Below, piece by piece: positions 37,280 through 64,000 of a stretch of 64,000 nt of DNA. Each line of letters starts with the position of its first letter. Position 1 is the stretch's first letter. The stretch is from a virus, in IMG/VR virus record IMGVR_UViG_3300045988_162923; one strand, given 5' to 3'. Both the position numbers and the translations under genes were made by a program. The notes under the pieces were generated by a model, which saw only the letters and a list, made by a program, of their open reading frames with translations, was not told the DNA's origin and searched no databases.

Positions 37280-37291
37280 TGTACTTCCTCC

Positions 37292-39024: not shown

Positions 39025-39067
39025 TTTTTACCTCCTTTCGGAAGTGGGGGCAAAAGCCCCCATCCGG

Positions 39068-40120: not shown

Positions 40121-40184
40121 ATCAATTCCTTTCTTAATTTCTGTATTGATTATATCACATTCGGTCGGGTTTGTCAAGTGGTTT

Positions 40185-41624: not shown

Positions 41625-41639
41625 TTTTTGTCAATCCTT

Positions 41640-41891: not shown

Positions 41892-41906
41892 TTTTTACTA
41901 ATCCTT

Positions 41907-42161: not shown

Positions 42162-42433
42162 TCAAAATTTTAATATCGGTCGCTTCTTCCATCAAGATTT
42201 CAAGCTGTTCGTCATTCATCTGTTATCCCTTCCTTTTTTCCCCAAGTGATAATTTTTGTGTAAGACTTTAATCCGAACATAAGTTTTTTCATGTCCAGAA
42301 TAAACAGGTCAGCGTCTCGTTCTGTGCGGAACTCTAATGTATTGCTATAATACAATCCCCTTTTATCAAAACCTGAATATTTGACAATAATATTTTTAGG
42401 AACCATTTTCTTATTTCCTTTCTTTGGAAGCGC

Positions 42434-42910: not shown

Positions 42911-43091
42911 TTCATTCCTTTTCGTTTTTGTATCTTGATTATAACACGCTTTTGCTTGTTTGTCAAGAGCCAGTTTTGAATTTCTGCGATATTTCCGCAC
43001 GAATTTTTTTCTCAGTTTGTTGTCAGGTTTTACACAGCGGGGACAATTTAAGTCCCACGCTGTAAAATCCTTACAAGTCCCTTTTTTCAGA

Positions 43092-43406
43092 TCATCCATG
43101 GAAAAAGCCCCGGATAATCTTTTCAAATGCGGGTTTGTAGTTTTCGGTCCAACGGCGCTCAAGTTCGGAGTTAGTGCCATTCACATAAGCGTCCCACTCG
43201 ATAGCGCCAAGGGCGTTGTGCTCGAACAGTTCGGCATCAGTAGGCATAGTCTCAGCAAAAATCAACTGCTGTTTGATATAAGCGTCAATAGTGAAGTTCT
43301 TCATTGTAATTACCTCGTTCCTTAACTTTGTACCCTTATTATACACCCTATTATTCTCTTTGTCTATTGGCAGAATACACAAATTCGGGATCAAATATTT
43401 TTTCAT
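43092..43406 (-). CDS. Hypothetical protein (104 aa)
   Basis: ORF from the track. Confidence 0.4.
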   Translation of the reverse strand: MKKYLIPNLCILPIDKENNRVYNKGTKLRNEVITMKNFTIDAYIKQQLIFAETMPTDAELFEHNALGAIEWDAYVNGTNSELERRWTENYKPAFEKIIRGFFHG

Positions 43407-43579
43407 TTTTGTTCAATTTTTCGCTTGACAAAATGGTTAGCCGGTGTTATAATGGAAATACCGGGGCTGGCAAACGTCGGCGGGCGGCCGCAAATCCTTT
43501 ATCCTTTAATTATAGCATACTCAGTTGAAAATGTCAATAGGCAAATTAAATAAAAATTAAAGCCCATTTGGGCTTTAAT

Positions 43580-43837
43580 TTACAAAATGTGGATTTCTGC
43601 GTCATAGGGATAAATGATCTGGTCACCTCGAACAAACTCCCAGTCCATTGTTTCAACATCTATGGCTGTTACATAAGTTCCATCTTCATCCATTAGCGGC
43701 ATAAGCTCATTAGCAATTTTCAAATAAATGCGTTCCGCATTATTAGACGGAGCAAAACAAGTGCCAATTGCTACATTCTTAAAGACAATAGGAGATTTCT
43801 TATTACATACAACTTTCATGTTATCAGCTTCTTTCAA
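43580..43837 (-). CDS. Small protein (85 aa); paralogue of 43834..44064
   Basis: Shared ..G.CF......D.LY.K.. Confidence 0.4.
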   Translation of the reverse strand: MKEADNMKVVCNKKSPIVFKNVAIGTCFAPSNNAERIYLKIANELMPLMDEDGTYVTAIDVETMDWEFVRGDQIIYPYDAEIHIL

Positions 43838-44064
43838 TACTCGGCGTGAATTTCTGCCCTTACTGGAAAAACATGGTGTTCATCATCAATCGCAGTATAA
43901 CCCATCACTTCAAGATTAACTGCGTTGATTGGTCCAATACTCTGTTCATAGAAAGATGGCATTTTCATGTAAAGAACATCAGAATTTCCAGTGGAATAGA
44001 AGCAATCACCAACCCTCAACTTGCTAAATTCAACTGCTCTAGTACCATCGCGAATAATTTTCAT
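43834..44064 (-). CDS. Small protein (76 aa); paralogue of 43580..43837
   Basis: ORF from the track. Confidence 0.4.
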   Translation of the reverse strand: MKIIRDGTRAVEFSKLRVGDCFYSTGNSDVLYMKMPSFYEQSIGPINAVNLEVMGYTAIDDEHHVFPVRAEIHAEY

Positions 44065-44645
44065 AGTATCAATTTCCTTTCTTTATTGTATAATTATTAT
44101 ATCACATTTTTATTATTTTGTCAATAGAGAATTTTATTGTCCAGTAGTTAAAACCACTGGACAATAAAAGGTACGGTAAAGAGAACGAATGAACGGATGA
44201 TAACATCGACAATGCTTTTCTTGTTTCCAGTAGCGAATTTCAGGACAGCGACCAGCCAGTCAATGACAAAAATAGCAATTACCAGAGTGAAGATAACCAT
44301 TTTCATTTTAAGTACCTCGCTTTCTTTTATATCATTATTCTATCATAGACTGGCTAGTTTGTCAACCCTTTTGTTCAGCTCTCTGCCAAAAAATTTTCAT
44401 AATACAGGTCAAAGTCATACGCATGGCAAAGATTTCCATGTACTCGAACTGGGGCAGATCAAAGTGCCAAGCAAAAATGTTCCAGCCCCACCAAATCAAA
44501 GCGGCAGTTGCGAACCACTTGCCAACTGTGTAGATAATCATGCTGATTGCCGCGCCTGCGGTCATGTTCTTGAAATCCATTGTTTTCATTTCCTTTCTTA
44601 ATTTGTACATTTATTATATCATGTAAGGGCTTGTTTGTCAAGCCC

Positions 44646-44960
44646 TTATTTCATAATCGCAGAAAATTCTTCTGTATGACCGCATTTATCGCAAGTGTAA
44701 TAATAATCTTTTGAGCCACGATAATTAGTAGCGCTAGAGAACTGATACTGACCACCGCATTCACAGTAACCATTATTCCAGCGGTCATGATTTCCTTCCG
44801 CGTCTTTATACAAAAGAGTCGCAACGCCAAAAGCGATAGCAAGCGCAACTAGAATGGCAATGATTTTGCCACGGCAAGTTTCAGGGGCAAGAAAAGCAAT
44901 CATCAGAGGGAAAATAGCCATAACTGCCCATACGATGTAAAAGCTCGGATTTGTAAACAT
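44646..44960 (-). CDS. Membrane protein with C-terminal zinc ribbon (104 aa)
   Basis: ORF from the track. Confidence 0.4.
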   Translation of the reverse strand: MFTNPSFYIVWAVMAIFPLMIAFLAPETCRGKIIAILVALAIAFGVATLLYKDAEGNHDRWNNGYCECGGQYQFSSATNYRGSKDYYYTCDKCGHTEEFSAIMK

Positions 44961-46051
44961 TGTAGTTACCTCATTCCTTAATTTCTGTATTGATTATACC
45001 ACATGGTAGCGGCTTTGTCAAGCCCTTTTATAAGAAAATTATTGCGGCAGAGAAAACTACCAGTACATAACCAATAGTTCCCATTATTACAGTGTGTCTA
45101 AACGCGCCATTTACATTCGCGTCAATGATAGCAAATCCGGCAAGGAATACCAGAAAAGCTATGAAGTATTGAAGTATTTTCATGTTAGAAACTCCAATGA
45201 CTTTCATGGTCAGCAAGCAAGGCTTCCCACATTTTGTTATAAAGCGGATAACCGCCCTCTTTGATACATTTTTCTCTGATAGATTCCCGAACCGCGAAAA
45301 TGCGGGCTAGTTCTTTATCCTGTTCTTGAAGCATAACTAAGTTAGCATCAAATTCCTTTTTGGTCATTGTAGTAACCTCTTTCTTAATTTCTACAGTTAT
45401 TATAGCATGGAATGGGGACTTTGTCAATCCCCATCACGCATTTTTTTCAGTTCTTCCAAAACTTCCCAAATCGCATTGTATTCTTCGTGGGAAGTCGCAT
45501 GGATGTTGGCAAAATTATTCAGGCTTTCATCATCCCAGCCATAGCGGTCGAGCCATGCGGACAATTTCTCAGCAAGTGTGTTCATAGTCATTGTGAATTA
45601 CCTCGTTCCTTAACTTTGTATCTTTATTATAACACCATGCTATTCTGTTTGTCTATTGGCAAAACGCACAAATTTCGGGAGAATTTTTTGTATAATATTT
45701 GTTCGATTTTTCCCTTGACAAATTGGCTGGCAGTATGTTATAATAAAATGCCGGCTAGTGGCGATTGTGGCCGGTGCGCCCATTTTATCATATTCTATTG
45801 GATTTGTCAATAGGCAAAATACACAAAAAATAAGGGGAATTTTCATTCCCCTTTGTGCGTCTTTTCGTATTCTTCAATCATGCGGCGAACCATCAGCCCG
45901 CCAACTGAATAGGTAGGCGCGGGATGCCCATTTACATAATCCTTAATGATGATTTTTTCATCCTCGGTCAGCGCGTCGAGCGTCTCTTTGAGTGCGTCAA
46001 GCTTTTTTACATCGAACATTTTTTATCAATTCCTTTCTTTATTGTATAATT

Positions 46052-46080
46052 ATTATAGCACGTTAAGTGCTAGTTGTCAA
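46052..46080 (-). promoter_or_regulatory. Consensus promoter TTGACA-17-TATAAT (minus strand)
   Basis: Reverse complement reads TTGACAACTAGCACTTAACGTGCTATAAT. Confidence 0.5.
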
Positions 46081-47334
46081 GTGTTTATTTCAGAAGTCCA
46101 AAGCCACAACGGAAAATAATAATAATTTCGCCGGTTGTATTGTCAACAACAATGTACTTGTTGCGCCAATGGTGCTTTCTACCAGTAGAACAACGCTGAG
46201 CAAATGTCATAGCATCATCCAGAGAATCCCAGTGAAGCGGAAATTCATAATCATTTTCATAAACATGATACATAATTTTTACTTCCTTTCTCCGGGACTT
46301 AATAGCCCCGGTTTTCCAAGCGGCACAGCCGACCAGCAAGGACGCCAGCCAGCCAAGTCTTAGACTGTTTCATCAGCCAAGCGGCGGTGCTCTGGCAGTT
46401 CGCCCAAATGTCCCAAGTCTGACCCTCGCGGATAATGTCCGCTTTCTTCATGCCCATGAGCTTGTTGTAGTAGGTGTTGTAGTTGTCAGCCATTGTTGTT
46501 ATCTCCTTCGTTCTTTGTGTCTTAATTATAGCATGAAGATTGCGGTTTGTCAAGCCCTAATTTTATTTTATTTCACCATTTTTAAAATACCCTGCGACGG
46601 GAATAAGTTTATAAGCTTCGGGATTTAGTCCATTATCATAGATAAATTTTTCAGCTGTTTCTTTGTCCTCAAAGACACAACCAGTGAATTCCAGACCGCG
46701 TTCGTATTTCATCAAACCAACCATTTTATTTGTCCCTTTCTTAATCAACGTATTCAGAATACAAAACTTTCCATTCAGCCGCATCCAGCTTACTTCTGTG
46801 GAAAGCATCAATTTCATTGTATCCAAAAATGATTTTTTCTTCCTGAGTGTTAATGTTCAAAATACCAAACTCAAACATGATTATTACCTCTCTTTATTTT
46901 GTATCTGTATTATAACACATCTGATAGCTGTTGTCAAGAACTAATTTTGCTTAATTCCACTCACGGCTGTTATAGTAGTCACGCACAGCATCCCATGCCT
47001 GAGACATAGAACCAGTAGCAAAACAGTAACCAGCTCCAAAAGAAAAAGAAGAAGCGGACACTTTGCGGCTAGGCACATGGCTATAATAGCCACGATCTGC
47101 GGAAAATGCTTTCTTCTGCTCATCAGATACGATGATAGATACTGTAGTCTTTGCCATGGTGTGTTACCTCATTTCCTTACCTTGTATTTGTATTATATCA
47201 TTTCGGGAACGCTTTGTCAAGCCTTTTTGCGCAAATATTTTACAGAATTTTTCTTTAGTACTTTAGCTTGGCGAAGTTCCGGAAACTCACTATCGTGTGC
47301 GGAAACTAACAAACGCAGAAAGAGCACGCTTTGC

Positions 47335-47643
47335 TTAGCGTGCTCTAACCTCGATGATTTCATCATCACAGATGGGTGATGTTCCCATGGTATTCATTAC
47401 CAAAAGAACCTTATCTCCAACGGACACATTTTCGTCTGTAGTACTCCATTCATTGCCCGCGCCATCTGTGTAGAATTGGACATTGCCATTGACTTCACAA
47501 ACAGTTGCGCTTCTCGCATAGATGTTATTGACATCCTGAGCTGGGTGTGCCTTAATGTACTGGCAGAGTAAGATAATGAGTAGGACAACAATGACTGCGC
47601 TGATAGCGCTGAAGATGTTCATGCGGCGTCTGATTTCTTCCAT
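47335..47643 (-). CDS. Secreted/membrane-anchored small protein (102 aa)
   Basis: ORF from the track. N-terminal hydrophobic helix. Confidence 0.4.
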   Translation of the reverse strand: MEEIRRRMNIFSAISAVIVVLLIILLCQYIKAHPAQDVNNIYARSATVCEVNGNVQFYTDGAGNEWSTTDENVSVGDKVLLVMNTMGTSPICDDEIIEVRAR

Positions 47644-47761
47644 AGTGAATACCTCTTTTCTTTACTGTATCTATAGTATAACACATTGCGGGAAACTTGT
47701 CAAGGGATAATTTTACACAAAAAGCACAAAAGATTTTTGTGACATTTGTATAATACGCAAA

Positions 47762-47921: not shown

Positions 47922-48233
47922 TTATTCAATTATGTTCTCGACTTTCTCTGCTAACTCTTCTGGTACATCAAGATCTAGGTCGAGCAGCACCTACATTGCT
48001 ATCTTGTATTTCACTAAGTCTTCGTTAGTTTTACTGATGCCCACATACTGCTATCCATCATTATTAAGAATAGAGAAATAAACTTCATCTCCAATATTCA
48101 ATTTGTATGTATCTCTGATTCCTTTTGGAATAACTACTCGGCCTAATGTATCAATCTTACGTGATACATTCATTGGCATTATTGATAACATTATCATTCT
48201 CCTTCTGGATAGATAGATTAGCTGATAGCACAA
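47922..48233 (-). CDS. AbrB/MazE-like swapped-hairpin DNA-binding protein (IDTLGRVVIPKGIRDTYKLNIGDEVYF), 103 aa, 2 in-frame TAG (recoded)
   Basis: Track ORF 48051..48233 continues through TAG to TAA at 47922. C-terminal acidic tail. Confidence 0.5.
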
Positions 48234-48454: not shown

Positions 48455-48585
48455 AAACTCTCTCCAAAACATTTTTCAATTCTGGATCACGAAAAACATT
48501 TTTCGATTTCAAATTACGGAAAAACATTTTTCGATTCTAAATCACGAAGATTCTAAATCACAAAAAATATTTACTTATAACAAAA
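48455..48585. repeat. Direct-repeat array: 3-4 copies of ~27-bp AAAAACATTTTTCGATTCTAAATCACG
   Basis: AAAACATTTTTCAATTCTGGATCACG / AAAAACATTTTTCGATTTCAAATTACGG / AAAAACATTTTTCGATTCTAAATCACGAAG / ATTCTAAATCAC. Confidence 0.5.
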
Positions 48586-49149
48586 ATAAGTAGTACTTTC
48601 CCACCAACCAGTATTTACATAACTACTTTTCCAAATACCGCTACCTTGTGTAAATTGAGCCTGATATACTACGTTCAAAGGAACATCAACGTATCCTTCT
48701 AAAGCCAATCGCGCATTTTCATAACATCTATCTTCAATATCAGTAGGATTCGCACGCGCATACCATTCCAAATAAGCGCCCGGTTGAGTAATTACGCCTT
48801 CAATAGTATCTGGAAAATCTTTATCTAACATTCTATTAATAACAATTCGAGCAACTACTTGCTGATGCCAATCAGGGCAACCCTTACTTTCATAATGAAC
48901 AACGTTAGCCAGCATTTTCAATTCCGCATCTGTATAGGGAACCGCATACCGCACTTCACTTACGCCATCATAAATCTCTTGTGCTCTTACAATAATAGGA
49001 TCATCTTCTGAAAGTCCAATAGAACGAGCTAATTCAGCAATTTGATGGGCTTTATCCTTAACATCATCTACATCCTTGCCGACATAAGTAAATCCGCACA
49101 AAGATAAAATTAAGCATAAAGCTAAACAAATAACAATAAATTTTTTCAT
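48571..49149 (-). CDS. SleB/CwlJ-family cell-wall hydrolase with lipoprotein-type signal peptide; candidate lysin
   Basis: MKKFIVICLALCLILSLCGF... plus VARIVINRMLDKDFPDTIEGVITQPGAYLEWY, resembling the Hydrolase_2 signature. Confidence 0.55.
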   Translation of the reverse strand: MKKFIVICLALCLILSLCGFTYVGKDVDDVKDKAHQIAELARSIGLSEDDPIIVRAQEIYDGVSEVRYAVPYTDAELKMLANVVHYESKGCPDWHQQVVARIVINRMLDKDFPDTIEGVITQPGAYLEWYARANPTDIEDRCYENARLALEGYVDVPLNVVYQAQFTQGSGIWKSSYVNTGWWESTTYFCYK

Positions 49150-49543
49150 TTTTCTTTACATCCTTTATCATAAAATTTACATTCTAGCATACATTGTCCA
49201 TCAAAAAAACAAGGTCTACATTTCATTAAAAGAAAAGTCTATAATTCTGTAGGATTACTATAATTATTACAATAATTCCATGCTTTTTCAAAGCCATATT
49301 CTTGTGCTACTCGCACAATTACATATTCATTTTTTAAACAACACCACTTTTTTTTATCTTCATCAGTAAAGTGCTTGCGCTTCTAAGTGCCATCAAAAGT
49401 ATAAGCAATAGTGCCGTCTTCGCGTTCAATGGGAGTAAAAGTAGTCTAAATCTAAAATGGATTTTCTAAATTTAATTTCTTACTTTCATATAAAGTAAAT
49501 TCGCGTTCCCAAAGACTTATTTTCCATTCAAAACCAGTAATCA

Positions 49544-49990
49544 TCATGCCCATCTTGCCTCTAACGCATTCAGAATATCTTTATAAGCATCTTCGCGCTC
49601 TTTATCAATTGGTCGATATACTTTGCGCAATTCTGTATTAAAACAGTTATTTCCAATATCAAGAATGCCGCGATTTTTTGTCGCCCATCCTCCAAGAGCA
49701 AAAGGATAACAATTAATGATATGCTCACCTTCCGGGAAATCAATGATGGTCAAAGTTGATTCAGAGATCATATCAAAAATATCTGGAGTATGCTTATTAC
49801 ACAGATGAACGGTAATGTCATGCGCCAACAGCACATTGAGAAGCGGTGCAAGATATTCATTGTTACGGTAGTCTGTACAAAAACATACTGTGCTACGTGG
49901 AGAGAGCGCTTGGGCAATTCTTGTTAGAGGATCTATCCAATTTTTCTAGTTATCTTCTTTTAGTTTATTTGTCAAATTTGTCACTGTCAT
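49544..49990 (-). CDS. Hypothetical protein (~148 aa) - track ORF 49544..49834 extended upstream through one TAG to the ATG at 49990
   Basis: In-frame continuation MTVTNLTNKLKEDN-Q-KNWIDPLTRIAQALSPRST... Would overlap the upstream gene end by 26 nt. Confidence 0.3.
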
Positions 49991-50551: not shown

Positions 50552-50741
50552 ATAATCCTCCTATCTTTTTATTCTATAAATATTATAATAAATTTTTTTA
50601 AAATTGTCAAATTTCTGTAAATGGGCAATTTCTATTAATTTATCTAAAAAAATTTTTAATCTTTTATTTAAAAGATTAAAAATTTTCTTTGACAGAAGAG
50701 AAAATTTGCGATATAATATTTATATAGACTGGAGGTAAAAA

Positions 50742-51806
50742 ATGATAAAGTTAGATTATTCTTTACAAACTCCAGAAGAGAGAAATGAATTAGTCGAAAA
50801 GATTCTTGCTGAGAATTCTGAACCAAGTGAAAAATATTTAGAAATCTTGGCTGACTATTTAGTTCTTTGTATGGAGAAACAAGAGAAAAAGGAAAAAAAA
50901 TTATTAACTGAAAATCGTATGGCTACAGTTAATAAAAGAGAAACTTCTTTTGAAGGTCTTGTCTCTCAACTAGAAAATGGCGAAGATGGAATTTATAATT
51001 TAATTACTGAAAATAAAAATACAATATTTTAGCCAAAAGTTACAATTACAAAAAAAGATGTTGAAGAAATACCTTATTTAAAATAGTTAAAAGAAGCCAT
51101 TTCAGCTTGGGAAGCCAAATTGAAAGTGACAGAAGGTAAAGATGCTTTTATAATTAAAAAAGCATTAATTGAAATGCGGAAAGATTAGTATGTTATTAAA
51201 AATGCTTACCGTAAACCAATTATTCCTAATAAATTAACTCGCTCAAGATGTTTAACTCCTTTAGATGGAGAAGTAAAAATGTTAGATGATGAAGATGGAT
51301 ATGTTTATCCAATTCCAGAAGGAGTAAGTTTATTAGATCCTGTCGTTTGTTCTGCTATTTTATGCAACTATTCTCGATTAAAACAAGATAGTCAAGGCGA
51401 GTATGAAAAAGATTTATGGTATTTAATGGAAGATTTTGATAAATTATGCGACCAAGCCTTGAAAGACTATCCATTATATGACAGAATAGTTGAATATAAA
51501 ATTGATGGATTACAAAATATTGACATTCAAGAGAAAATCCAAATGGAATTTGGTATTAAACATAGTCTTGAGTATATTTCTAGTCTATGGAGAAACAAAA
51601 TTCCAAAATTAATTGCATCTACTGCGGAAGATGAATATTTAAGTTGGTATTATTTAAATGTTGAAAAAGGACATTATAAACGTTGTAGTAGATGTGGTGA
51701 AATAAAATTAGCTCATAATAAATATTTTAGTAAAAATAAAACTAGTAAAGATGGATTTTATAGCATTTGTAAATGTTGTCGAAATTCTAAGGCCAAAAAA
51801 TCATAA
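50742..51806 (+). CDS. Hypothetical protein (354 aa) with C-terminal zinc ribbon (CSRCG...CKCC); 3 in-frame TAG (recoded); first gene of late block
   Basis: Track ORFs 50742..51032 and 51279..51806 are in the same frame and joined by a TAG-containing segment. Possible late regulator or small-terminase candidate. Confidence 0.45.
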
Positions 51807-51850
51807 TCCTTTCTATGAATTACTAATAATCTAATGAAAGGAGAAATTTT

Positions 51851-53026
51851 ATGGCAGAAACTTATTATTGCGAGAAATGTAATCGCACAATGAATGCTTC
51901 TGAATTTTATGGTAGTAATAATTTAGAAAAGTATCCTACCGGTAAATTAAATCAATGTAAAAAATGTATTACAATGCACGTTGATAACTGGAATCCAGAT
52001 ACTTATCTTTGGATTTTACAAGAAGCTGATGTTCCTTATGTTCCTAAAGAATGGCAAAGTCTTATGATGAAATATGCCACTAATCCAAGTGAAGTAACAG
52101 GAACTACTATTTTAGGACGTTATCTTTCTAAAATGAAATTAAAACAATATAAAGATACTCGTTGGAAAGATACTGAACGACTTCAAGAATTAGAAGATGC
52201 TAAATTAGAGCAAACTATGAAACGTCAAGGTTATGACGCAGTTCAGATTATGGAAGCAAAAGAAAAAGGCAGAGTATTTACAATGCCTGATAAGCCCCTT
52301 GAGGAACCTGTATATGAAGATACTACTATAGTTCCGCAAGAAGATTATTTTGCTTAGCAAAACGGTCCAGAAGAAGATTTAGATTTAACTGAAGAAGACC
52401 GTACGTATCTAAGATTAAAATGGGGCAAAACTTATAAACCTGAAGAATGGGTTAAATTAGAATAGTTATATGAAGAAATGATGGCTTCATATGATATTCA
52501 AGGCGCAGGTCACAAAGATACATTAAAATTAATATGTAAGACATCTTTGAAAGCGAATTAGCTGATCGATATTGGTGATATCGAAGGATTCCAAAAGATG
52601 AGCAAAGTTTATGATAGTTTAATGAAATCTGGTAAATTTACTGCTGCTCAAAATAAATCTGAGTCTTCTGGAGAATTTGATTCTATTAGTGAATTAGTTG
52701 AAATGTGTGAACGCGAAGGATTTATTCCTCGCTATTATACTGAAGGTCCTATGGACAAAGTTGATGAAACTTTAAATGATTTAAAGAATTATACTCATAC
52801 ATTAGTCACTGAAGAAATGAATCTTGGTAATCTTATTGAAGCTGCCGTTAAAAATATGGTTGATTAGGAAAACCGTGAAGAAGATGAAGATATTGAAGAT
52901 ATGGATAATTTAGATGAAGAAGTATTAAAAGATGAAGATTTTATAGAACATAATTAGTTCTTAGAAGATGAAAGTGATTTAGATGAAATAATTTATGAAA
53001 ATATGGCGAAAGGAAAAGAAGTCTAA
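51851..53026 (+). CDS. Hypothetical protein (391 aa), N-terminal CxxC..CxxC zinc ribbon and very acidic C-terminus; 6 in-frame TAG (recoded); stop overlaps the terL start
   Basis: Track ORFs 51851..52357 and 52598..52867 are in the same frame. Its position immediately upstream of TerL suggests a small-terminase/packaging role. Confidence 0.4.
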
Positions 53027-54759
53027 TGGCACTTAAAGACTTATTAGATTTAAGTGCCTCTCGCCGTAAAGTTGGTCTTTCAGAAGAGCGATTAAGAGGT
53101 ATTATTCCAGAAGCACGTAAGTATATTGCCTTCTGGAGAGAATATCCTGATTTATTTATTGATTTCATGGCGGGACCGGATGGTGGTCCCCAACACTTTC
53201 ATTTATTCTTTTATTAGAGAATCTTTTTGCGTGCGGCAATGCGACATAAATATATTTATGCCGTATTTCCTCGTGCGTATTCTAAATCATTCTTATCTAT
53301 GATGGTACTTATGTGTCGAGCTATTCTTTATCCTCGTTGTAAATTATTTATTACTTCTGGTGGTAAGGAACAGGCCGCAGGTATCGTTAAAGAAAAAGTA
53401 CAAGAAATTTGTACATTAATTCCAGCATTTAATAAAGAAATTGATTGGCGGCGTGGTCAAACACTTGAAGGTAAGGACTATGTTAAATATGTATTTAAGA
53501 ATGGTTCTTATTTTGATAATATTGCTGCTAGAGAATCTTCTCGTGGTAAACGTCGTCATGGCGGCCTTATTGAGGAATGCGTTGGTGTTGATGGAGATAT
53601 TTTATCTTAGGTTATTATTCCTACGATGAACATTTCTCGTATGTGTATGGATGGCACAACGCATGATGAAGAAACTCTTAATAAATCTTAGATTTATATT
53701 ACTACTGCTGGATATAAAAATACATTCCCTTATGATAAGTTAATTCAGTTACTTGTCTGGGAAATTATTAAACCTTAGCAGTCAATTATAATGGGTGGTA
53801 CTTGGCGTATTCCTGTGTTAATTGGCTTACAATCTAAATCATTTATTCAAGATTTAAAACAAGATGGTACTTTCAATGAAAGTTCTTTTGATCGTGAATA
53901 TGAAAGTAAATGGTCTGGTACTGTTGAAGACGCATTTTTCAATGCGGAAATTTTTGATAGAAACCGCATTTTAAATTAGCCTGAATATGAAGCAAGTGGT
54001 CGTTCTTCTAAATTAGCTTTTTATGTTTTAGCGGCTGATATTGGACGTAAAGGTTGTGATTCTGTTATTTGTGTATTTAAAGTAACTCCGCAATCTCAAG
54101 GCGGCGCCACAAAAAGTCTTGTTAATATTTATACTTTGTCAGATGAACATTTTGAAGATTAGGCTATTAAATTAAAGAAATTATATTATAAATATAATGC
54201 TCGTTAGATTGTAATAGATGGTAATGGTATGGGTATTGGCTTAATTGACTATATGGTTAAATCTTAGACTGATCCTGATACTAATGAAACTTATCCTGAT
54301 TTTGGTGTCTCTAATGACGAAGAAGGATACTACAAAAAATATAAGACCTCTGTTACCGAATTAGATGCTATGTATATTTTAAAAGCGAATGCGCCAATCA
54401 ATACTGAAGCGCATGCTATTGCGCGTTCATAGCTATCTTCTGGAAAAGTAAAATTCCTTATTGATGAACGTATTGCTAAAAATAAATTAATGGCAACTAA
54501 AGTTGGTCAATCTATGAAACCTGAGTAGAGGGCAGAATATTTAAAACCATTTACTTTAACTTCCATATTAAAAGAAGAAATGATGAATTTGCGTGAAGAA
54601 ACTGAAGGAGTAAATATTATCCTGAAGCAGGCAAATCGTGGTATCCGAAAGGATAAATTTTCAGCTTTTGAATATGGATTATATTATTTAAAACTCGAAG
54701 AAGATAAAAAGAAAAAACGTAAGAAATTTAAAGCATCTGATTGGTGCTTTATGAATTAA
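53026..54759 (+). CDS. terL: Terminase large subunit (ATPase + RNase-H-like nuclease domains); ~11 in-frame TAG codons (recoded)
   Basis: Track ORFs 53026.., 53227.., 53791.. are all in one frame. Nuclease-domain motifs LAADIGRKGCDSVICVF and IVIDGNGMGIGLIDY. Followed by the portal gene. Confidence 0.7.
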
Positions 54760-54771
54760 GGAGGGAAGTCT

Positions 54772-55128
54772 ATGCGTGCTTCTAGAGGAGAAATAAAAAT
54801 AGAAGAAATCTTAGAAGAAGCTGGACTTCCTTTTAAAATGGAATATATATTTCCAGATTTAAGAAGTCCAAATGGACGTCCTTTGAGATTTGATTTCGTT
54901 ATATTTGATGATGATGGTAAAATTGATTTTATCATTGAGTATTAGGGCAAGCAACATTATGAAGCAAGTTCTAAATTTGGAGGTAAACGCGGTTTATATC
55001 AATAGCAATATAATGATAATCAAAAGAGACGTTTTTGTGCTTTGCACGATTTTAAATTAATAGAAATTCCATACACTGATGAAAACCTTATTTCTTATGA
55101 TTATATAATGAAACTAGCAGGTTATTAA
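54772..55128 (+). CDS. Freestanding PD-(D/E)XK / DUF559-like endonuclease (LRFDFVIFDDDGKIDFIIEY-Q-GKQHY); 2 in-frame TAG; homing-endonuclease-like insertion between terL and portal
   Basis: Same nuclease-domain family as the C-termini of the Zn-ribbon proteins at 8476-10546 and 22523-23323. Confidence 0.55.
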
Positions 55129-55140
55129 GGAGGTGGAATT

Positions 55141-56826
55141 TTGGATAATCAAACTCAGACCCTAAATCAAGTCCGTGCTGAAGAAATTCATAATAAAGGA
55201 TTTGATATGACTGATTCTTATCGAGAATATAGAACTGCGATTGCTAATGAATATAAAAAAGTTAAGGTTGGTAATAGAAGTCTAAATGATGTTATTTTAG
55301 ATTTAGATTATTACCAAAAAATAAACATTCCGGGTCAAAAAGGTTTTTGTAAAGCAGATATTTATAAAGCAATAGCTGATCATGATTTACCGGAATTGCG
55401 TCGTATATCTAATTTATTTTATAGTGTAAATGGTATATATGAGCGCACTTGTAATTATTTTGCTTTTTTATATAGATATGATTGGTATGTCGCGCCAGAG
55501 ATTCTAGATGATGCAGTCAAAGAGGAAAAGATATTAAAAGATTTTTCAAAGACTCTTAATTATTTAGATAGTAGTTATATTAAGAAAATTTGTGGAGATA
55601 TATCTTTAAAAGTAATTAAGGAAGGTTGTTATTATGGATATATAGTTCCTTCTAATGACCATTTAATTTTACAAGATTTGCCGGTTAACTTCTGCCGTTC
55701 TCGATACAGCGTAGATAATATGCCTGTTATTGAATTTAATATGAAGTTCTTTGATACTTTCCGCGATATTAATTATCGTATGAAGGTATTGAAATTATTC
55801 CCTGATGAATTTGCCAAAGGTTATATGTTATATAAGCAAGGTAAATTAAAATCAGAAGAAATTGTATTAGGCAGAGATTCTACTATTGGATGTTGGTATA
55901 TGTTAGATCCACAGTATTGTGTGAAGTTTAATTTAAATAATGATGATATGCCATTATTTGTTAGTTCTATTCCTGCTATTATGGATTTAGATGCTGCACA
56001 AGAATTAGACCGTAAAAAGCAAATGTAGAAGTTGTTAAAAATCATTGTTCAAAAACTTCCTATGGATAAAAATGGAGATTTAATTTTTGACTCTGATGAA
56101 GCATTAGATATTCACCATAATGCTGTAGAGATGTTGCGTAGATGTATTGGTGTTGATGTTTTAACTACATTTACTGATGTTGATACTATTGATTTAGCAG
56201 ATAGGAATACTACAACAACTACTGATGACTTATCTAAAGTAGAACGTACTGTTTATAATTCTTTAGGTATTTCATAGAATTTGTTTAATACTGATGGTAA
56301 TATGGCATTAGAAAAATCAGTATTAAATGATGAATCATATTTGCGCAATCTTTTATTACAATACAATATTTTCTTTAATAGAATTACTGCTATGCGTAAT
56401 AGCAATAGTCGTAAATATAATTTTAAATTTTATATGCTTGAAACTACACAATATAATTATTAGAATTTAGCAAAATTATATAAAGAACATGTGTAGTTAG
56501 GATACTCTAAAATGCTTCCTCAAATTGCTTTAGGCCATTCTTAGAGTTTCATTCTAAATGCTGCTCATTTTGAGAATGATGTACTACATTTGAGTGAAGT
56601 TATGATACCTCCTCTTATGAGTTCTACTATGGGTAGTGAAGATATTTTGGGCTTAAAAGGTTCAGGAAATAAAACTGAAACTCAAAATAATTCAGGAACA
56701 TAGAAAACAAATGTTACTACAACAACGGCTAAAACATCAAGCGGTTCTGGTACGGCCGGACGACCTGAGAAAGCCGATGATGAAAAGAGTAGTAAAACTA
56801 TTTAGAATAAAGAATCAATGAGTTAA
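55141..56826 (+). CDS. Portal protein (~561 aa); 6 in-frame TAG (recoded)
   Basis: Track ORF 55141..56028 extends in frame through TAGs to TAA at 56824. Size and position (after TerL, before scaffold/capsid) fit a portal. S/T/G-rich C-terminus. Confidence 0.55.
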
Positions 56827-56833
56827 GGAGGAC

Positions 56834-58462
56834 ATGATGAAACATACAAGTATTAAATTAGAAACACCTTGTGAGTTTATAAATATTACTCCTGTTAATC
56901 CTTTAATTTCTAAGTGTTAGATTAAAGTGTGCTATGTCGGAGATACACCTAACCGCAATGGTAGTATTATTACTAAAGAAGTTGCGCGTTAGATGGCTAA
57001 TTCTTTGCCAGGTAGTCCCATTGTTGGTTATTACAATGATGCTACTGGAGATTTTGAAGAGCATAATCGTGTAATTGATATTTCAAATGGTCAATTTAAA
57101 ATCCAAGATACAACTAAGCCTTATGGTTTTGTTGATTTAAGTGCGCGTGCATGGTTTTAGAAATTTAATGATGATGGCATAGAGCATGAATATCTAATGA
57201 CTGAGGGTTATATTTGGACTGGCCAGTATCCTGAGTGCCAGCGCATTATAGACCAAGGTAATAATCAATCCATGGAATTAGATGAAAAAACTTTAAATGC
57301 AACATGGACAAAAGATGATAATGGTAAGCCAAAGTTTTTTATTATAAATGAGGCAATAATCTCTAAGCTTTGTGTTTTGGGAGAAGAATGTGAACCTTGT
57401 TTTGAAGGCTCTCAAATCACAAAATTTAGTCTTACATTCGATGAAGATTTTAAGCAAAAGCTATTCTCCATGATGAATGATTTAAAAGAATTAATTAAAG
57501 AAGGAGGAACCAAAGTGTTTTCAAGATATGCTGTTGAAATTGGCGATAACTTATGGAACTCTTTATGGAATTACACTTTAGAGAAATATCCTGATGCTGA
57601 CAATGCTTATAGTTCAGTATATGCTATCGAAGGTGTATGTGAAGAGGATTCTCAGAAGTTTGCTGTCTTACAGAATCGTGCTGATAATAAGTATTATCGT
57701 TTAAATTTCTCTTTAAATGAAACCGATGGTTTTGTTCCTGCTGATGCTTTAATTGAAGTAACTGAGTCTTATACTCCTGCCGCTGAACCTCAATTTTCTT
57801 TAGAGGCAGTAAAGACTTATGAAACTGAATATGCTTCTAAAAAAAAGGCAGAAGAAGAGGACAAAAATAATAAAGATAATAAGTCTAATTCTGATAATAA
57901 ATCAGAGGGCAAAGATAATGATTCTGATAATCCAGAAGATGGCAAAGACAAAAAGCCAATCGGTAAAAAAGATGATCCTGATGATGGTAAGGGTAATAAC
58001 TCTGACGATGATGGTAACAAAGATGATGAAGATAAGAAAAAGAAGAAAAAGTATTCATTAGAAGATGTTACTGAATATCAAGAACTAAAAACTGAATATG
58101 AAGAATTAAAATCTAAATATGCCGCTTTAGAAACAGAAAAGAATTCTTTAACAGAAGAAATTGAACCTTTAAGAAAGTTCAAACTTGCTTCTGAAAAGAA
58201 AGATAAGGAAGCTATGATTGCTCAATTCTATATGTTATCTGATGACGATAAGAAAGATGTCATTGATAACATTGATAAGTATTCTGTTGATGATATTGAA
58301 GCAAAGCTTTCTGTTATTTGCGTTCGCAACAAGGTAAGTTTCGACCTTGACGAAAATAAAGAAACCAAGCCTACTACTTATAATTTAAATAATGGTGAAG
58401 ATGATGATGAATCTATTCCGGCTTGGGTAAAAGCTGCGTTGAAATATGAAAACGCTAGATAA
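56834..58462 (+). CDS. Head scaffolding protein (possibly with N-terminal prohead-protease-like domain); acidic/Lys-rich repeat region and coiled coil; 3 in-frame TAG
   Basis: RBS AAGGAGG. Track ORF 57197..58462 extended upstream. YQELKTEYEELKSKYAALETEKNSLTEEIEPLRKFKL coiled coil. Confidence 0.5.
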
Positions 58463-58485
58463 ATTTAATAAGGAGGACATACTAA

Positions 58486-59397
58486 ATGTTTAAAGACTTT
58501 TGGACTCGAAATATGGACCCAAAGTATCACAAGTCTCAGGCTAAGTATGTTGAGTTTGGTTACGGTCAGGTCGAACCTAATCACCTGTCAGCACAGAGAA
58601 CCGCTCAAATTTATGCTCAGTTGCCTGCTAAACCAGAGATTGAGATTCTTGAAAACGGTCAATATGTAAAGTATGATTATGCTGCTAATGGCAATGGCAT
58701 TGGCGAAGTTAATTTCACTGGCGCTGGCGAGTGGATGTTAGTATATAATGAAATTAAGTTATATCGTAACCATCTTGATGGTACAAAACAGTGGGATTGC
58801 GAATTCGCAATGCTAAAGGACGATTATCAGGCTCGTGTATATAGCCCATTGGATTGGGAACATCCTGAGCAGGAATATCAGACCAAGTGGCTTAATGGCG
58901 TTGATGCTGATGGTAAGAGTTCTTACACTTGGAAGATGAATGTTGATATCAATCGTGATGGCAAGACTGTTACTATTGATGGTCAGGATTATGATGTTGC
59001 TGATAATAAATTTACTTATAATGGTACTGAATATACTCTTGTTGATGGTAAAGTAACTATTGACTTTGTTCGTACTTTTGATGATGTTACTACTAATGTT
59101 CGCGATATCTATGAAATGAATTGGACTAATGATCCATATCATAAGTTAGGTATTTATCGTGAAAAGCGCATGAATCCAGGTACTGCTATGGTTCCTCGTG
59201 TTTTCAAGACTAATGTTGGTGATATTTATACTACCAATATGATTAATGAAGAAACCTTAGAGATTGGCGATATCCTTTCTCCTGATGCTACTGGTATTTT
59301 AAGTAAGACTGGCGACGCTACTATGAGTTGGCAGGTTGTTAAGCTTTATACCATGCCTGATGGACAAAAAGGCGCTAAGATTATGCGTATTAAGTAA
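58486..59397 (+). CDS. Structural (capsid-associated/decoration?) protein, 303 aa, no TAG
   Basis: RBS AAGGAGG. Strongly biased 'highly expressed' codon usage (GGT/GCT/CGT). Confidence 0.45.
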   Translation: MFKDFWTRNMDPKYHKSQAKYVEFGYGQVEPNHLSAQRTAQIYAQLPAKPEIEILENGQYVKYDYAANGNGIGEVNFTGAGEWMLVYNEIKLYRNHLDGTKQWDCEFAMLKDDYQARVYSPLDWEHPEQEYQTKWLNGVDADGKSSYTWKMNVDINRDGKTVTIDGQDYDVADNKFTYNGTEYTLVDGKVTIDFVRTFDDVTTNVRDIYEMNWTNDPYHKLGIYREKRMNPGTAMVPRVFKTNVGDIYTTNMINEETLEIGDILSPDATGILSKTGDATMSWQVVKLYTMPDGQKGAKIMRIK

Positions 59398-59414
59398 GAA
59401 AGGAGAGAAGAACA

Positions 59415-60521
59415 ATGTTAGATAGAAAAAATTTAGTCGCTTTAATGAAGACTGTTGCTAAAGCTGATCCTTCTGCTCCTACTGCTTATAGTTTTGGTGG
59501 TCAGAATCTAAGTTATGATGCTTTGAATGACACTCTTCGCGCAGAAATGAATGAATTAGCTGGTACTTATTCACTTTATCGTGATAATAAGAATCAGATT
59601 TTCTCTATGATTGAAGAAACTCTTGATGAAGTTCTTCCAAAGAAAGTTATTCAGCAATATGATCAGTTTGCTGAAGTTAAGACCTTTGCTCAGGGCGATA
59701 AGCCAATTTTCCGTCGTCCATTACAGACTCGTGCTCGCGCAAAGCAGTTCGTAACTCGTGTCGGTCTTGCTGGTATTTATGAAGTATTTAAGCTTGGACC
59801 TGCTGAGAACGAATGCTTCGAAGTTCGTACATCTGCTATCGGCGGAGCCGCTCAGATCGGTTTCGAAGAATTCCTTGATGGTCGTGTTGATTTCGCTGAA
59901 ATGACTAAGATCATTATGGAAGGCATGGACGAACTTATTTACAAAGAAGTTGCTCGTGCTCTTGTTTCTTCTATCAATCAGTTACCACCTGCTAACCGCG
60001 TTGCTGTTGCTGGTTTCGATGAAGCTGCTATGGATAAGTTAATTACTATTGCTCGTGCTTATGGTACTCCTACTATTTATTGTACTTATGAGTTTGCTGT
60101 TAAGATGATTCCACAGGAAGCTTGGAGATACACTGAGGCTATGAAGACTGAGCTTTGGAATACTGGTCGTCTTCCTACTTATAAGGGAACTCAGGTTATT
60201 ATTCTTGAGCAGGGCTTTGAAGATGAAACCAATAGTCGTAAGGTAATTGATCCTGGTTATGCTTGGGTTATTCCTACTGGTGCTGATGGCAAGCCTGTTA
60301 AGATTGCTTTCGAGGGCAATACCATTGTTGATGAATTCCATGGTTATGATCGTTCTCGTGAAATTTAGGTTTATAAGAAGGTTGGCGTTGTTTGCATGCT
60401 TGCTAACAATATTTGCGCTTACTGCGATACTTCACTTGTTGGTCAGATGGCTACTTGGAATTATGATGGTGTCACTGGTAAGGTCGTTACCTATGATGGT
60501 AGATTAGATGGTACAATCTAA
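59415..60521 (+). CDS. Major capsid protein candidate (368 aa); 1 in-frame TAG near C-terminus
   Basis: RBS AAGGAGAG. High-expression codon bias. Followed by the strongest terminator in the window. Track ORF 59415..60368 continues through TAG to TAA at 60519. Confidence 0.5.
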
Positions 60522-60550
60522 TTCATAATTAATATATAAATTTACCTAAT

Positions 60551-60590
60551 GGGGAGAGGGAAATAACTCCCTCTCCCCATTATTTTTTTT
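60551..60590 (+). terminator. Strong rho-independent terminator (GGGGAGAGGG-loop-CCCTCTCCCC + T8)
   Basis: 10-bp G/C stem followed by TTATTTTTTTT. Confidence 0.7.
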
Positions 60591-60611
60591 AAGAGATAAA
60601 GGAGATATAAA

Positions 60612-61205
60612 ATGATTAATCAAACTGATATGTATAATGTTAAGAATAGAAGTTCTAGTGTTGTTGTCTATTCAATTCCAGAAAGTAATTTACGTAGAAC
60701 ATTTGCCCCAGGCGAGTCTAAAAGAATTCCTTTTAGTGAATTAGAGAAGCTAACTTATCAGCCTGGTGGCCGTGAATTAATTGCTAATTTTTTACAGATT
60801 ATGGAAGAAGAAGTTACTCAGGATTTAAATATTCACAGAGAGCCTGAATATAATATGTCAGAAGACCAAGTCCGCGATTTAATTTTAAATGGTTCACTTG
60901 ATGCTTTCTTGGATGCTCTTGATTTTGCTCCAATTGGAGTTATTGATTTAATTAAGAGTCTTTCTGTATCTCTTCCTATTACTGATTTCCAAAAGCGTCA
61001 AGCTCTTTTAAAGAAAACTGGATTTGATGTAGATAAAGCTATTGCTAATGATAAGGCTAGTAAGGAGAGCAATGAATCTTCTAGTATCCTAGAAGATGTA
61101 AGTCCTAATAAGAGAAGAGTTGTTCAGGAAGAAGCTCCTCAAGGCCGCCGCACTGCAGGCAATAACTATAAGGTAATTAATAAAACCGCGGAAACTTCTA
61201 AGTAA
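60612..61205 (+). CDS. Hypothetical structural protein (197 aa)
   Basis: RBS AAAGGAGAT. ORF from the track. Confidence 0.45.
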   Translation: MINQTDMYNVKNRSSSVVVYSIPESNLRRTFAPGESKRIPFSELEKLTYQPGGRELIANFLQIMEEEVTQDLNIHREPEYNMSEDQVRDLILNGSLDAFLDALDFAPIGVIDLIKSLSVSLPITDFQKRQALLKKTGFDVDKAIANDKASKESNESSSILEDVSPNKRRVVQEEAPQGRRTAGNNYKVINKTAETSK

Positions 61206-61225
61206 TAAAAGAAGGGAGCGATTAA

Positions 61226-61807
61226 ATGGGAACACTATTCTCTACTGTATATAATCGCTTTCTAGGAAAAGTTACTGATGATATGTATCTGGAATTAACT
61301 CCATAGGATACTTTAAAAGATTTATAGAATTTGATTATAGATGCTATACCGGGATTTGAATTTCCGCGTAAAAATCTATATGATTATACAATTCAAGTTG
61401 ATACTGTTGATGAAGATAGTACAACTTCAAATGATTTTATTGTAGGTACTTTATGGGGAACTATTCCAGAACCGGGCGAAAAACCTCAAGTCCTAGTAGA
61501 TCGTTCTACTTTTGGATGTGATTTAACTGAAGAAGAAATTAATATTTTAGCTATTTTGATGATGTGCGGTTGGGTACAACGTCAAGTCACTTCTATTGAA
61601 AACACTCGAATGAAATATAGTGGTTCAGATTTTAAATTTACTTCATAGGCAAATCATTTGTCTAAATTATTAAATTTATTATCTGACTGTCAAAGATAGT
61701 CCCATCATTTACAACGTCTTTATAAACGTAGACGTTTAAATGATAAAGGTGAATATGAATCTACATGGGATATGTTTAAACCTGATGAATACAAGTTATG
61801 GTATTAA
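61226..61807 (+). CDS. Head-tail connector/head-completion-like protein (193 aa); 4 in-frame TAG
   Basis: RBS AAGGGAG. Track ORF 61331..61648 extended both ways through TAGs. Confidence 0.4.
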
Positions 61808-61933
61808 TATCCCAAAAGAGAGTGTTGAAAAAAATTGTTTACGCTTAACCAACCAATTATGGAAATTAATTCCAATGCGTGAACATGATGAAGATTGGCA
61901 AAAATAGCTAGAAACTGTCATAAATGAAATCGT

Positions 61934-61970
61934 GGGGTTCAGTGTAATTTTTAGTACTGAACCCCTTTTC
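61934..61970 (+). terminator. Hairpin GGGGTTCAGTG-N10-TACTGAACCCC + TTTTC
   Basis: 11-bp perfect inverted repeat. Alternatively lies inside a small recoded ORF (61875..62093). Confidence 0.4.
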
Positions 61971-62076
61971 TTATAGCTTTTAGGAAAACTTGAAGGCTTA
62001 GATAATCAGGAGACAGAATTTAATTTCTATCGTAAAACTGTTTTTGAAGCTATTAATTTATTATAGGAAATAAATC

Positions 62077-63141
62077 ATGGCATCAGGATATGATTATAGT
62101 AGTTAGCATCCATTTAGATTGATATAGGGACGACTGGGTACATATGATAAACGTCCGTATGAAGGTAACTCTGTTGAAGGCGTGAATGATACTGCGGCAA
62201 GACTGCGTTAGATGGGTGGTAATCTCCAACAAGAACGTATGATAATGTCTAAGCGCAGAAGTTTAGATTAGGCAGTATGGAATTCATATTAGGCTGCTGA
62301 GATTATAAAACCAAAAGCAGCATTAAAAAAACCTATACGTGCTTTAATAAATCCTAATAAATTAAAGCAAGATTATGATGATAAGATTCTTTCTGTTGGA
62401 TATGAATATAATTTTAAACCAGGGGATGTATTTGAGTGGCGTGGTACTCATACTTATTGGCTTATTTATTTACAAGATTTAACTGAACTTGCATATTTTA
62501 GAGGAGATATACGTAAATGTTCTTTTGAAATTAATTGGCAAGATGAAGAAGGTAATGAGCAAAGTACTTATGCGGCTATTCGCGGACCAGTTGAAACTAA
62601 AATTGATTATATTTAGAAACATGGTATTAGTGTAGATAATCCAAATTATACATTAAATATATTAATGCCTAAGACAGAAGAAACTTTGAAATATTTTAAA
62701 CGTTATAGTAAATTTTATCTTTCTCCATATATAGAAGGCGCTGATAAAATATGTTGGCGAGTTGAAGCAATAGATTCTATTAGTATGCCGGGAATATTAG
62801 AAGTTAATGCTACAGAATATTTTGCTAACAAAATTGAAGATGATTTAGAAAAAGGTATTGTTGGAGCATTAATTACTAAACCTATAGATCCAAATGAAAA
62901 TCCTGATTTATATGAAATTTAGGGAGAAACTTTTATTCACCCTAAAAAAGAATATAAATATAATTTTTCTGGTTGGGAAGCTGGAGAGTGGAGTATAGAT
63001 AAAAAATTCCCTGTTAAATATAAAATAGATGATTTTGACCCTCGTGAAATTACAATATATTGGGAGGCAGGATTTAGCGGACAATTTGATTTAACTTATG
63101 GCAATTATAAAAAAACTATTGTAGTTGAATCATTGTTTTAA
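62077..63141 (+). CDS. Tail/structural protein (354 aa); 7 in-frame TAG
   Basis: Track ORF 62665..62922 extended in frame. Continuous with TAG=Q. Confidence 0.45.
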
Positions 63142-63156
63142 AGGAGATAAAGGTGT

Positions 63157-63741
63157 ATGAAAATTGATGGAGTAAAAATACCAAAGTCAAGTTTCTTATC
63201 TATTGAAAAAGATGCAGGCATTATAGTAGATAGAATTTGTGCCAATGAAAGATTAAAACGATTATTATATTATACTACTCCAGATGCAATGGAAAGACCT
63301 AATTTAACTGATGATTAGATGTATGAATTATTTAAAAAGAATATTAAATTAGTACCAAAAGTTTATGTTGATGGTTCTGTATTAAATTATTTAATTATTT
63401 CTTTTGATAAATTTGTAACTAATGAGACTAATCCAGAATTTAGAAATAATCTTATTGAATTTGATATTGTTTGTAATTTTGATTAGTGGCATTTAAAAGA
63501 TTATTAGTTAAGACCTTTCAGAATTGCAGCAGAATTAGATAGTATATTAAGTGATACTCATTTAACTGGTATTGGTAAATTAGAGTATGTTGATGCTGAA
63601 CTTTTTGTTTTAAATGATTATTATGGTGGAGTCTGTTTAACTTATTAGGCTATCCATGGTGAAGAAGATAAAAAGAGAATGCCTAATCCAATAGATGATG
63701 AAAAATTTTTAAAAGATTTTGAGGAAATGAATAGTAAATAA
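63157..63741 (+). CDS. Structural protein (194 aa); 4 in-frame TAG
   Basis: RBS AAGGAGATAAAGGTGTATG. Stop TAA overlaps the next ATG (TAATG). Confidence 0.4.
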
Positions 63742-64000
63742 TGGATATACGATTGGCACTTATGTGTGGAACTGATATTCCAGTTCCTGAAATACAATCA
63801 ATTATTCATTAGCCTAAAATCCGTGAAATTGCTTATATTGGAGAACAAGACTTTTTTATAGGGATGTAGTGTTTTTGTATTAACAAAGATAATTTACATA
63901 TAAACGAGGGCGAAAGTCTTTTAAGGAATACAAGTAATTTTTAGATATTTATGACAATGATGTAGGAAAAGGAAATGGCAGATAAAAAATATGCTACTCG
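63741..64000 (+). CDS. Structural protein, 3'-partial (runs off window end); TAG-recoded
   Basis: MDIRLALMCGTDIPVPEIQSIIH-Q-PKIREIAYIGEQDFF... Confidence 0.35.

Follow-up and report, generated by a model that had tools for sequence, protein, structure and literature searches.

In-frame TAG codons, probably read as glutamine, in the structural and mobile nuclease genes of a large SPbeta-like human-gut phage

The viral record IMGVR_UViG_3300045988_162923 (64,000 nucleotides (nt), the whole of which is called the window here; G+C 34%) falls by purine skew into four strand blocks: minus from 1 to 28.6 kb, plus from 29.0 to 30.9 kb, minus from 31 to 50.6 kb, and plus from 50.7 to 64 kb. The subject of this report is the reading of TAG in its genes, above all in the structural and packaging genes of the last block (the late block, 50742-63741, plus strand), where TAG recurs in frame. 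A protein look-up led to L005, a human-gut contig of 200,199 bp that matches window positions 1-14074 with 100% identity. The sole match of the late block to GenBank phages by megablast was 210 nt long at 79%, indicating that there is no close deposited genome.

The late block is preceded by a perfect sigma70-type promoter (TTGACA-17-TATAAT, 50689-50717, plus), after which come GGAGG and, at 50742, the ATG; a divergent partner promoter lies at 50610-50582 (minus). The first gene (50742-51806; 354 amino acids (aa); TAG at codons 97, 115 and 149) matches PHROG 5767, 'sigma factor', carries a C-terminal Cys4 ribbon, and encodes a putative sigma-like or helix-turn-helix (HTH) transcription factor. 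The genes that follow, all on the plus strand, encode: a YonG-like protein (51851-53026, 391 aa, five TAG; PHROG 3314); the large terminase (53026-54759, 577 aa, ten TAG, those at codons 64 and 379 falling on nearly invariant glutamines); a small homing-endonuclease-like protein of the PD-(D/E)xK type (54772-55128, 118 aa, two TAG; PHROG 9084/559 and a weak match to Pfam DUF2726); the portal (55141-56826, 561 aa, seven TAG; PHROG 2739 over residues 36-522 with an E-value of 1e-70, and tblastn matches to phage portals); a YonD-like protein with an acidic, low-complexity, scaffold-like centre (56834-58462, 542 aa, three TAG; PHROG 3313); a late protein without TAG (58486-59397, 303 aa); the YonB-like major capsid protein (59415-60521, 368 aa, a single TAG at codon 318; PHROG 4088); three further late proteins (60612-61205, 197 aa, no TAG; 61226-61807, 193 aa, four TAG, PHROG 3853; 62077-63141, 354 aa, seven TAG); and a YomW-like tail-module protein (63157-63741, 194 aa, four TAG). 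The Pfam domains YonG_N (on the orthologue in the related locus L002), YonD_N, YonB and YomW, as well as YomV and YomU, were read from precomputed hits on orthologues in L002-L004. The PHROG matches of the terminase come in two families, 15503 (residues 10-207) and 24618 (residues 351-576). Start codons are ATG except for one TTG, every stop is TAA, and the genes are tightly packed, neighbours abutting or overlapping by a few bases; a strong terminator (60547-60582) lies 3' of the capsid gene and another (61934-61965) 3' of the 61226-61807 gene.

Read with the standard table (table 11), the plus strand of 50651-64000 gives 29 open reading frames (ORFs; median 62 aa, coding density 0.735), versus 14 (median 328 aa, density 0.953) with TAG as a sense codon (table 15); a comparable gene picture was not obtained in the late block when TGA or TAA was opened instead. 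The 12 main late ORFs contain 46 in-frame TAG and neither TAA nor TGA in frame. In the 11 that do not encode a nuclease (4034 codons), 44 TAG and no TAA or TGA stand in frame, versus 146 TAG, 413 TAA and 382 TGA in the other two frames of the same genes, which excludes chance, pseudogenes and sequencing error. The PHROG profiles (portal, terminase and others) align uninterrupted over the TAG positions, these positions show no clustering toward the N-termini, and TAG reaches 10.9 per 1000 codons in the late genes, against at most 2.0 in the early module. In the cultured standard-code phages used for comparison (Enterococcus EF1, Staphylococcus SPbeta-like phages and phiCD211), no homologue C-terminus coincides with a TAG position, so that true truncation, the outcome that would have told against the preliminary description of this DNA, was not seen; the improvement of gene calls expected from table 15 was. 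Its statement that every late gene is fragmented by the standard table applies to most of them, the exceptions being 58486-59397 and 60612-61205, which have no TAG, and the capsid gene, whose only TAG comes at codon 318 of 368. Across 44 related loci, the density gain of table 15 over table 11 was 0.147 in those with a suppressor tRNA and 0.073 in those without, a difference confounded by the tRNA arrays and accompanied by a rise in the table-4 control as well.

The residue inserted at TAG was approached by three comparisons. In the related locus L002, whose late proteins are 54-91% identical, the codons facing the 46 window TAGs are 15 TAG, 13 CAA, 2 CAG and 16 others (Glu, Lys, Arg, Ser and others); in the reverse direction, the 45 TAGs of L002 align with 15 TAG and 11 CAA of the window, and 11 of the 112 CAA/CAG codons of the window face TAG in L002. 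CAA is two substitutions away from TAG, and the swap therefore represents an exchange of synonyms and not mutational proximity. At the ten TAG columns of the terminase, aligned with 50 diverse full-length large terminases drawn from a 1.8-billion-protein library, Gln accounts for 32.8% of residues versus 3.6% overall (9-fold), reaching 49/50 at column 64 and 45/50 at column 379, with Glu and Lys next in rank; this test is partly circular, some database terminases having been translated with TAG as Q, and for this reason the third comparison was limited to the cultured standard-code phages. In these, Gln is the commonest residue facing the TAGs (14 of 61, 23%, against a background of 3.8%), and EF1, the closest cultured phage, has it at 12 of 34. 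The L002 and cultured-phage comparisons are free of the circularity. As judged from these alignments, TAG is shown to be interchangeable with CAA/CAG in relatives and to sit on conserved Gln positions, and the code-15-like assignment TAG to Gln, proposed beforehand from the DNA alone, is supported by all three independent comparisons.

Part of that proposal came from a motif, E-[FY]-D-G-[KE]-Q-H, of a set of four paralogous nucleases with a Cys-repeat N-terminus and a PD-(D/E)xK C-terminus: a homing-endonuclease-like gene at 8476-9435 (minus, 319 aa, eight TAG), its paralogues at 9809-10546 (minus, 245 aa, four TAG) and 22523-23323 (minus, 266 aa, four TAG, within the 'early' strand block), and the late-block gene at 54772-55128 (plus) as the fourth member. 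The motif Gln is written TAG at 8599-8616 (minus) and at 9989-10006 (minus; GAT GGT GAA TAG CAT TTT, a case beyond those first quoted) and CAA at 22706-22723 (minus). The three strings originally cited all exist (22706-22723 and 8599-8616 on the minus strand, 54937-54954 on the plus strand); in the last of them, however, TAG faces the motif Asp, and the motif Gln is CAA.

These paralogues belong to the seven mobile-type nuclease genes of the window, all of which are recoded; the other three are the 3' part of a PDDEXK_5 nuclease gene (2-397, minus, six TAG, its start lying beyond the window edge) and two HNH endonuclease genes (1929-2525, minus, 198 aa, seven TAG; 5554-6036, minus, 160 aa, four TAG, E-value 8e-40). 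Five of the seven stand in the tRNA region (1-10.6 kb). TAG makes up 50% of the Gln-like codons in the six complete nuclease genes versus 28% in the structural genes. Recoding also occurs in a low-GC island (29029-30399, plus; three genes with 12 TAG, the first with a weak HTH match; TAG share of 75% over the four genes of 29029-30899, including the TAG-free 30534-30899), in a 267-aa gene behind a perfect promoter and ribosome-binding site (13112-13915, minus; TAG at codons 9 and 52), in a 135-aa gene (49146-49553, minus, four TAG) adjoining the cell-wall hydrolase gene 48571-49149, and in an AbrB-like gene (47922-48233). TAG is thus shown to act as sense in the genes for structure and packaging, in every one of the seven for mobile-type nucleases and in a few more, and recoding follows gene class (structural, mobile nuclease, few others) across the whole window and not one coordinate block, contrary to its placement in the late block only.

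The 542-aa ORF 14938-16566 (minus) ends in TAG TCT TAG TCT TAG (14926-14940), with another TAG 14 codons further on and then 72 in-frame codons before TGA closes the frame at 14665. Two readings fit: three amber stops in a row with a distinct 61-aa gene behind them, or an extension of the C-terminus that depends on the suppressor; databases have the 542-aa form on just two contigs, both short and both called with the standard code. This ORF and 10638-12083 (minus) are large paralogues with a common CxSxHPxD...W..C core and a C-terminus rich in Cys, where CxxC pairs are numerous; for them PHROG gives 'unknown function' only.

The expression signals of the remaining blocks were analysed by scoring sites TTGACA-N16-18-TATAAT with at least 11 of 12 positions matching (perfect, 12 of 12). 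The window contains 47 such near-consensus sigma70 sites, 30 of them perfect, against 4.8 expected, which bears out the description of its promoters as Firmicutes-style. About 26 perfect promoters lie in the early region (31000-47700, minus), in front of small genes without TAG; an AAAGGA ribosome-binding site and ATG follow each of them after ~25 nt, and many have an extended -10 TG. Thirty-two of the 34 genes directly behind near-consensus promoters lack TAG both within the frame and at its end, where TAA or TGA stands instead, and are consequently read identically under both codes; the exceptions are 13112-13915 and 50742-51806. The early/late contrast drawn previously is therefore upheld. 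An early module of long TAG-avoiding ORFs was confirmed only as being largely TAG-free: its genes are mostly short (median about 85 aa), and some of those on this side are recoded (22523-23323, 13112-13915, 49146-49553 and the island). In the early region a perfect TTGACA-N17-TATAAT recurs roughly every 500 bp, many with TG at -15/-14 and a conserved AAAGGAATTGATACAATG start region, and G+C is raised to 38-47%. Perfect promoters facing the opposite way are found at 34700, 43425 and 45715 (plus), and the promoter at 31041 (minus) reads antisense into the plus-strand island.

At the window's opposite end, a tRNA array (542-8343, minus; ARAGORN and Rfam) comprises 21 ordinary tRNAs together with unusual tRNA-like elements. 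None of the 21 has the anticodon CUA according to ARAGORN and Rfam. In L005 the array runs on beyond window position 1 with a tRNA-Val and then a tRNA(CUA), 394-469 nt past the edge on the same strand, and the suppressor tRNA whose presence was at issue is thereby found. It is 75 nt long (L005 14469-14543), with an encoded CCA and an Rfam tRNA score of 42 bits. A promoter TTGATT-N17-TATAAT with an extended -10 stands directly upstream of the tRNA-Val/suppressor pair, 108 nt left of the window. The tRNA(CUA) has U1 unpaired with C72, and G73; in established E. coli work these features count as tRNA-Gln identity elements, a lead and not a test. A tRNA(CUA) was present in 28 of 52 related IMG/VR loci, and a TCA or TTA suppressor in none of the 52.

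The array holds several further elements. The second promoter type, TTGATT-N17-TATAAT with TGA before the -10, also occurs ahead of tRNA groups at 8416, 8155, 7949, 2959 and 1609 (minus). A tRNA-Gln(UUG)-like gene (542-679, minus) has its anticodon (CUUU|GAC) interrupted by an insert of 66 nt that is itself tRNA-like (7-bp acceptor stem, D stem, stub anticodon arm, T arm, discriminator G and CCA) and resembles weakly the SpF41 small RNA of Rfam (E 0.49). The same tRNA-Gln is unbroken in a near-identical relative (L014 15124-15198), making the insert a clean presence/absence difference; no literature on this arrangement was found, and an exact-pattern scan of IMG/VR gave no match. A second tRNA-in-tRNA arrangement lies at 1778-1925 (minus; outer loop CTTAT|AA, inner element of 73 nt ending in G-CCA) and is kept at L014 13230-13378, with compensatory changes in the inner acceptor, outer acceptor and outer anticodon stems. 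Similar nested elements are found in distant relatives (L037 7884-8054 and L051 15615-15771), one of them within a tRNA-Gln(UUG). Sub-threshold matches to the Y RNA-like YrlA family of Rfam (38 and 27 bits, at 7971-8080 and 1433-1543, both minus) correspond to permuted tRNA-like modules, the T arm preceding the D arm, with a long closing stem, and one of them abuts a tRNA-Ile; by eye, a third such module lies ~10 nt upstream of the suppressor tRNA (L005, about 14330-14460). The tRNA at 7093-7164 (minus; Rfam 37.5 bits) has an 8-nt anticodon loop, CAGUAGAG, called 'gtag' by ARAGORN and conserved in L005 and L014. The ORF 4285-4845 (minus) was dropped as a gene, given that it overlaps two tRNAs. 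About 1.5-4.3 kb left of the window (L005 15589-18415), two adjacent genes of 404-407 aa carry Pfam Mtd_N, which suggests a predicted target of a diversity-generating retroelement.

Taken as a whole, the best explanation, to which we assign a probability of roughly 0.85, is that the window comes from a human-gut phage of ~200 kb whose structural module is SPbeta-like and whose expression signals are of the Firmicutes type, and in which a subset of genes is written in genetic code 15 and depends on a suppressor tRNA, the early genes being free of TAG. Unmodified host machinery would translate the early genes in the standard code, while the suppressor tRNA would be transcribed together with the tRNA array; as it accumulated and was charged with Gln by a host enzyme, messages containing TAG could be completed, and the virion proteins and homing nucleases would hence be made only late. 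This timing model follows Borges et al. (10.1101/2021.08.26.457843). The perfect host promoter and the three TAGs of 50742-51806 mean that this gene could be transcribed early and completed only with the suppressor tRNA, which may put the code switch upstream of late transcription. In an extended version, which we regard as speculative and unlikely, the code switch would lie upstream of the transcription switch, the suppressor tRNA acting as the master timer of late transcription and the split tRNA-Gln possibly being a linked layer; the insert in tRNA-Gln(UUG), with a similar one in the tRNA-Gln(UUG) of a distant relative, hints at regulated Gln decoding.

Several points weigh against the code-15 reading and its timing model, in addition to the partial circularity of the terminase test. 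The two TAG-containing genes behind perfect host-type promoters imply that the recoded set is not simply a late transcription unit; the tRNA(CUA) has a non-canonical T-loop (GUCGGCA), and a comparison with 1038 phage tRNAs puts it closest to other suppressors and not to tRNA-Gln; neither release factor 2, raised as a check in the preliminary description, nor an aminoacyl-tRNA synthetase was found among the ORFs scanned in the window; no hepatitis delta virus-like or theta ribozyme was detected beside the tRNAs with Rfam at gathering or E-value thresholds; the 'sigma factor' label of 50742-51806 comes from a single PHROG annotation; and control of timing through recoding is something we infer by analogy with other phages.

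Among the competing explanations, decay of a prophage into pseudogenes, or errors made in sequencing or assembly, would account for genes broken into fragments by the standard table; their probability is negligible, given that the frames are interrupted by TAG alone and never by TAA or TGA, that hundreds of independent assemblies carry the terminase, with contigs as long as 201 kb, that identity to an independent contig is 100% across 14 kb, and that relatives keep the frames while the TAG positions differ. It is also very improbable, if slightly less so, that TAG is read as another residue (pyrrolysine, Glu, Lys, Trp or Tyr), even though ARAGORN calls the tRNA 'Pyl' (solely from its anticodon), Glu and Lys come second at the terminase TAG columns, and half of the relatives' CUA tRNAs are 88-97 nt long, of the long-variable-arm type. 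Pyrrolysine users are included among the Desulfitobacteriaceae, to which Dehalobacter belongs. A further point on the side of this rival is that one suppressor of the recoded phage group phAss-1, compared below, was found to be most similar to a tRNA of Dehalobacter (PMC10607447). The enrichment of Gln, the two nearly invariant Gln columns, the dominance of CAA/CAG among the non-TAG counterparts in L002 and the lack of pyl genes (pylS/pylBCD) in the window all speak for Gln instead. The tRNA(CUA) itself is unlike tRNA-Pyl in having a normal GG D-loop, a spacer of two bases from acceptor stem to D stem, and a variable loop of 5 nt.

A rather unlikely alternative, though one deserving more weight than the two above, accepts the recoding and denies the timer: TAG would accrue neutrally or by descent in genes needed only after the suppressor is present, with structural modules and homing nucleases swapped among code-15 phages, so that ancestry and drift, and not regulation, would lie behind the pattern. 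The free exchange of TAG and CAA between relatives would be expected under it, as would the heavier recoding of the most mobile genes (50% in nucleases, 28% in structural genes), the absence of a concentration of TAGs near N-termini, and the variation in recoding between species among phAss-1 orthologues (PMC10607447, Table 2). It accounts less well for the avoidance of TAG, even as a stop, in 32 of 34 promoter-proximal genes, which points to selected compatibility with the host code and not to drift alone, and for the same gene-class bias in recoded clades that are unrelated (10.1101/2021.08.26.457843). In a variant of this alternative, recoding would shield genes from expression by hosts or competing elements.

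The reading of this DNA as that of a code-15 phage leaves the established picture of phage stop-codon recoding unchanged and has practical consequences. The lineage is abundant in human-gut assemblies, and gene calling with the standard table shreds its terminase, portal and tail genes. The full-length 577-aa terminase, with Gln at the TAG positions, is already in public protein collections on hundreds of contigs, which implies that automated pipelines have applied the alternative code; PHROG 15503 and 24618 match only the ends of the terminase, a pattern that would fit shredded calls having entered reference libraries. The window also offers a clean layout for the timing hypothesis, with ~30 consensus promoters on TAG-free early genes versus a TAG-rich late block that begins with a promoter-driven, TAG-interrupted putative regulator, and with every mobile nuclease gene recoded.

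Reassignment of TAG to Gln in late genes, with suppressor tRNAs encoded by the phage, is established for Lak, crAss-like and several gut ('gemstone') clades (10.1101/2021.08.26.457843), and in crAss-like phages recoding was confirmed by metaproteomics (PMC9523058). The window has in common with these phages the concentration of TAGs in structural genes, the compatibility of early genes with the standard code, the tRNA(CUA), the partial recoding and a recoded homing endonuclease, as noted also by Borges et al., who described a preferentially recoded one (10.1101/2021.08.26.457843). It differs in its SPbeta-type structural module and Firmicutes-type signals, not those of a Bacteroidota phage lineage, and from some recoded clades in that no release factor or synthetase, an optional trait, was seen in the window. 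The match to Lak and crAss-like phages suggested earlier thus holds for the recoding strategy, the closest described relatives being the phAss-1 group and SPbeta-like Firmicutes phages. The Sapphire clade (~201 kb, 26% of genes recoded; 10.1101/2021.08.26.457843) is alike in genome size (~200 kb here) and code only.

phAss-1 and the proposed Phassvirus (Babkin et al. 2023, PMC10607447; OQ749652) have genomes of 133-138 kb with 44% GC, TAG read as Gln and a tRNA-Sup-CTA. Shared with this group are the human-gut origin, the relation to EF1, large tRNA sets with tRNA-Sup-CTA, the lack of a dedicated synthetase, and the fragmentation of terminase, portal and tail genes by table 11; phAss-1 is also the best annotated tblastn match of the portal (39.5% identical). 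The phage described here is larger (~200 kb), has 34% GC and is absent from the 17 genomes listed in PMC10607447. Megablast gave no nucleotide match of phAss-1 to the late block, which places the two outside the same genus (the Phassvirus criterion being ~80% or more nucleotide identity together with a common genome plan).

By tblastn, the same structural module is found in Enterococcus EF1, Staphylococcus SPbeta-like, Clostridioides phiCD211 and Bacillus phages. In EF1 the terminase homologue (L009 5269-8305) is split by tblastn into three pieces, separated by an annotated HNH homing endonuclease, suggesting an intron- or intein-type interruption; the terminase gene here precedes a recoded nuclease gene. 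The late module is syntenic with that of SPbeta-like siphophages in the order 'sigma factor', YonG-like protein, terminase (YonF), portal (YonE), YonD, YonB capsid and YomW onward. A large SPbeta-like Firmicutes phage lineage is therefore added to the code-15 phages, the strategy itself being already well described: the cultured SPbeta-like phages use the standard code, whereas the same genes here hold 46 TAG.

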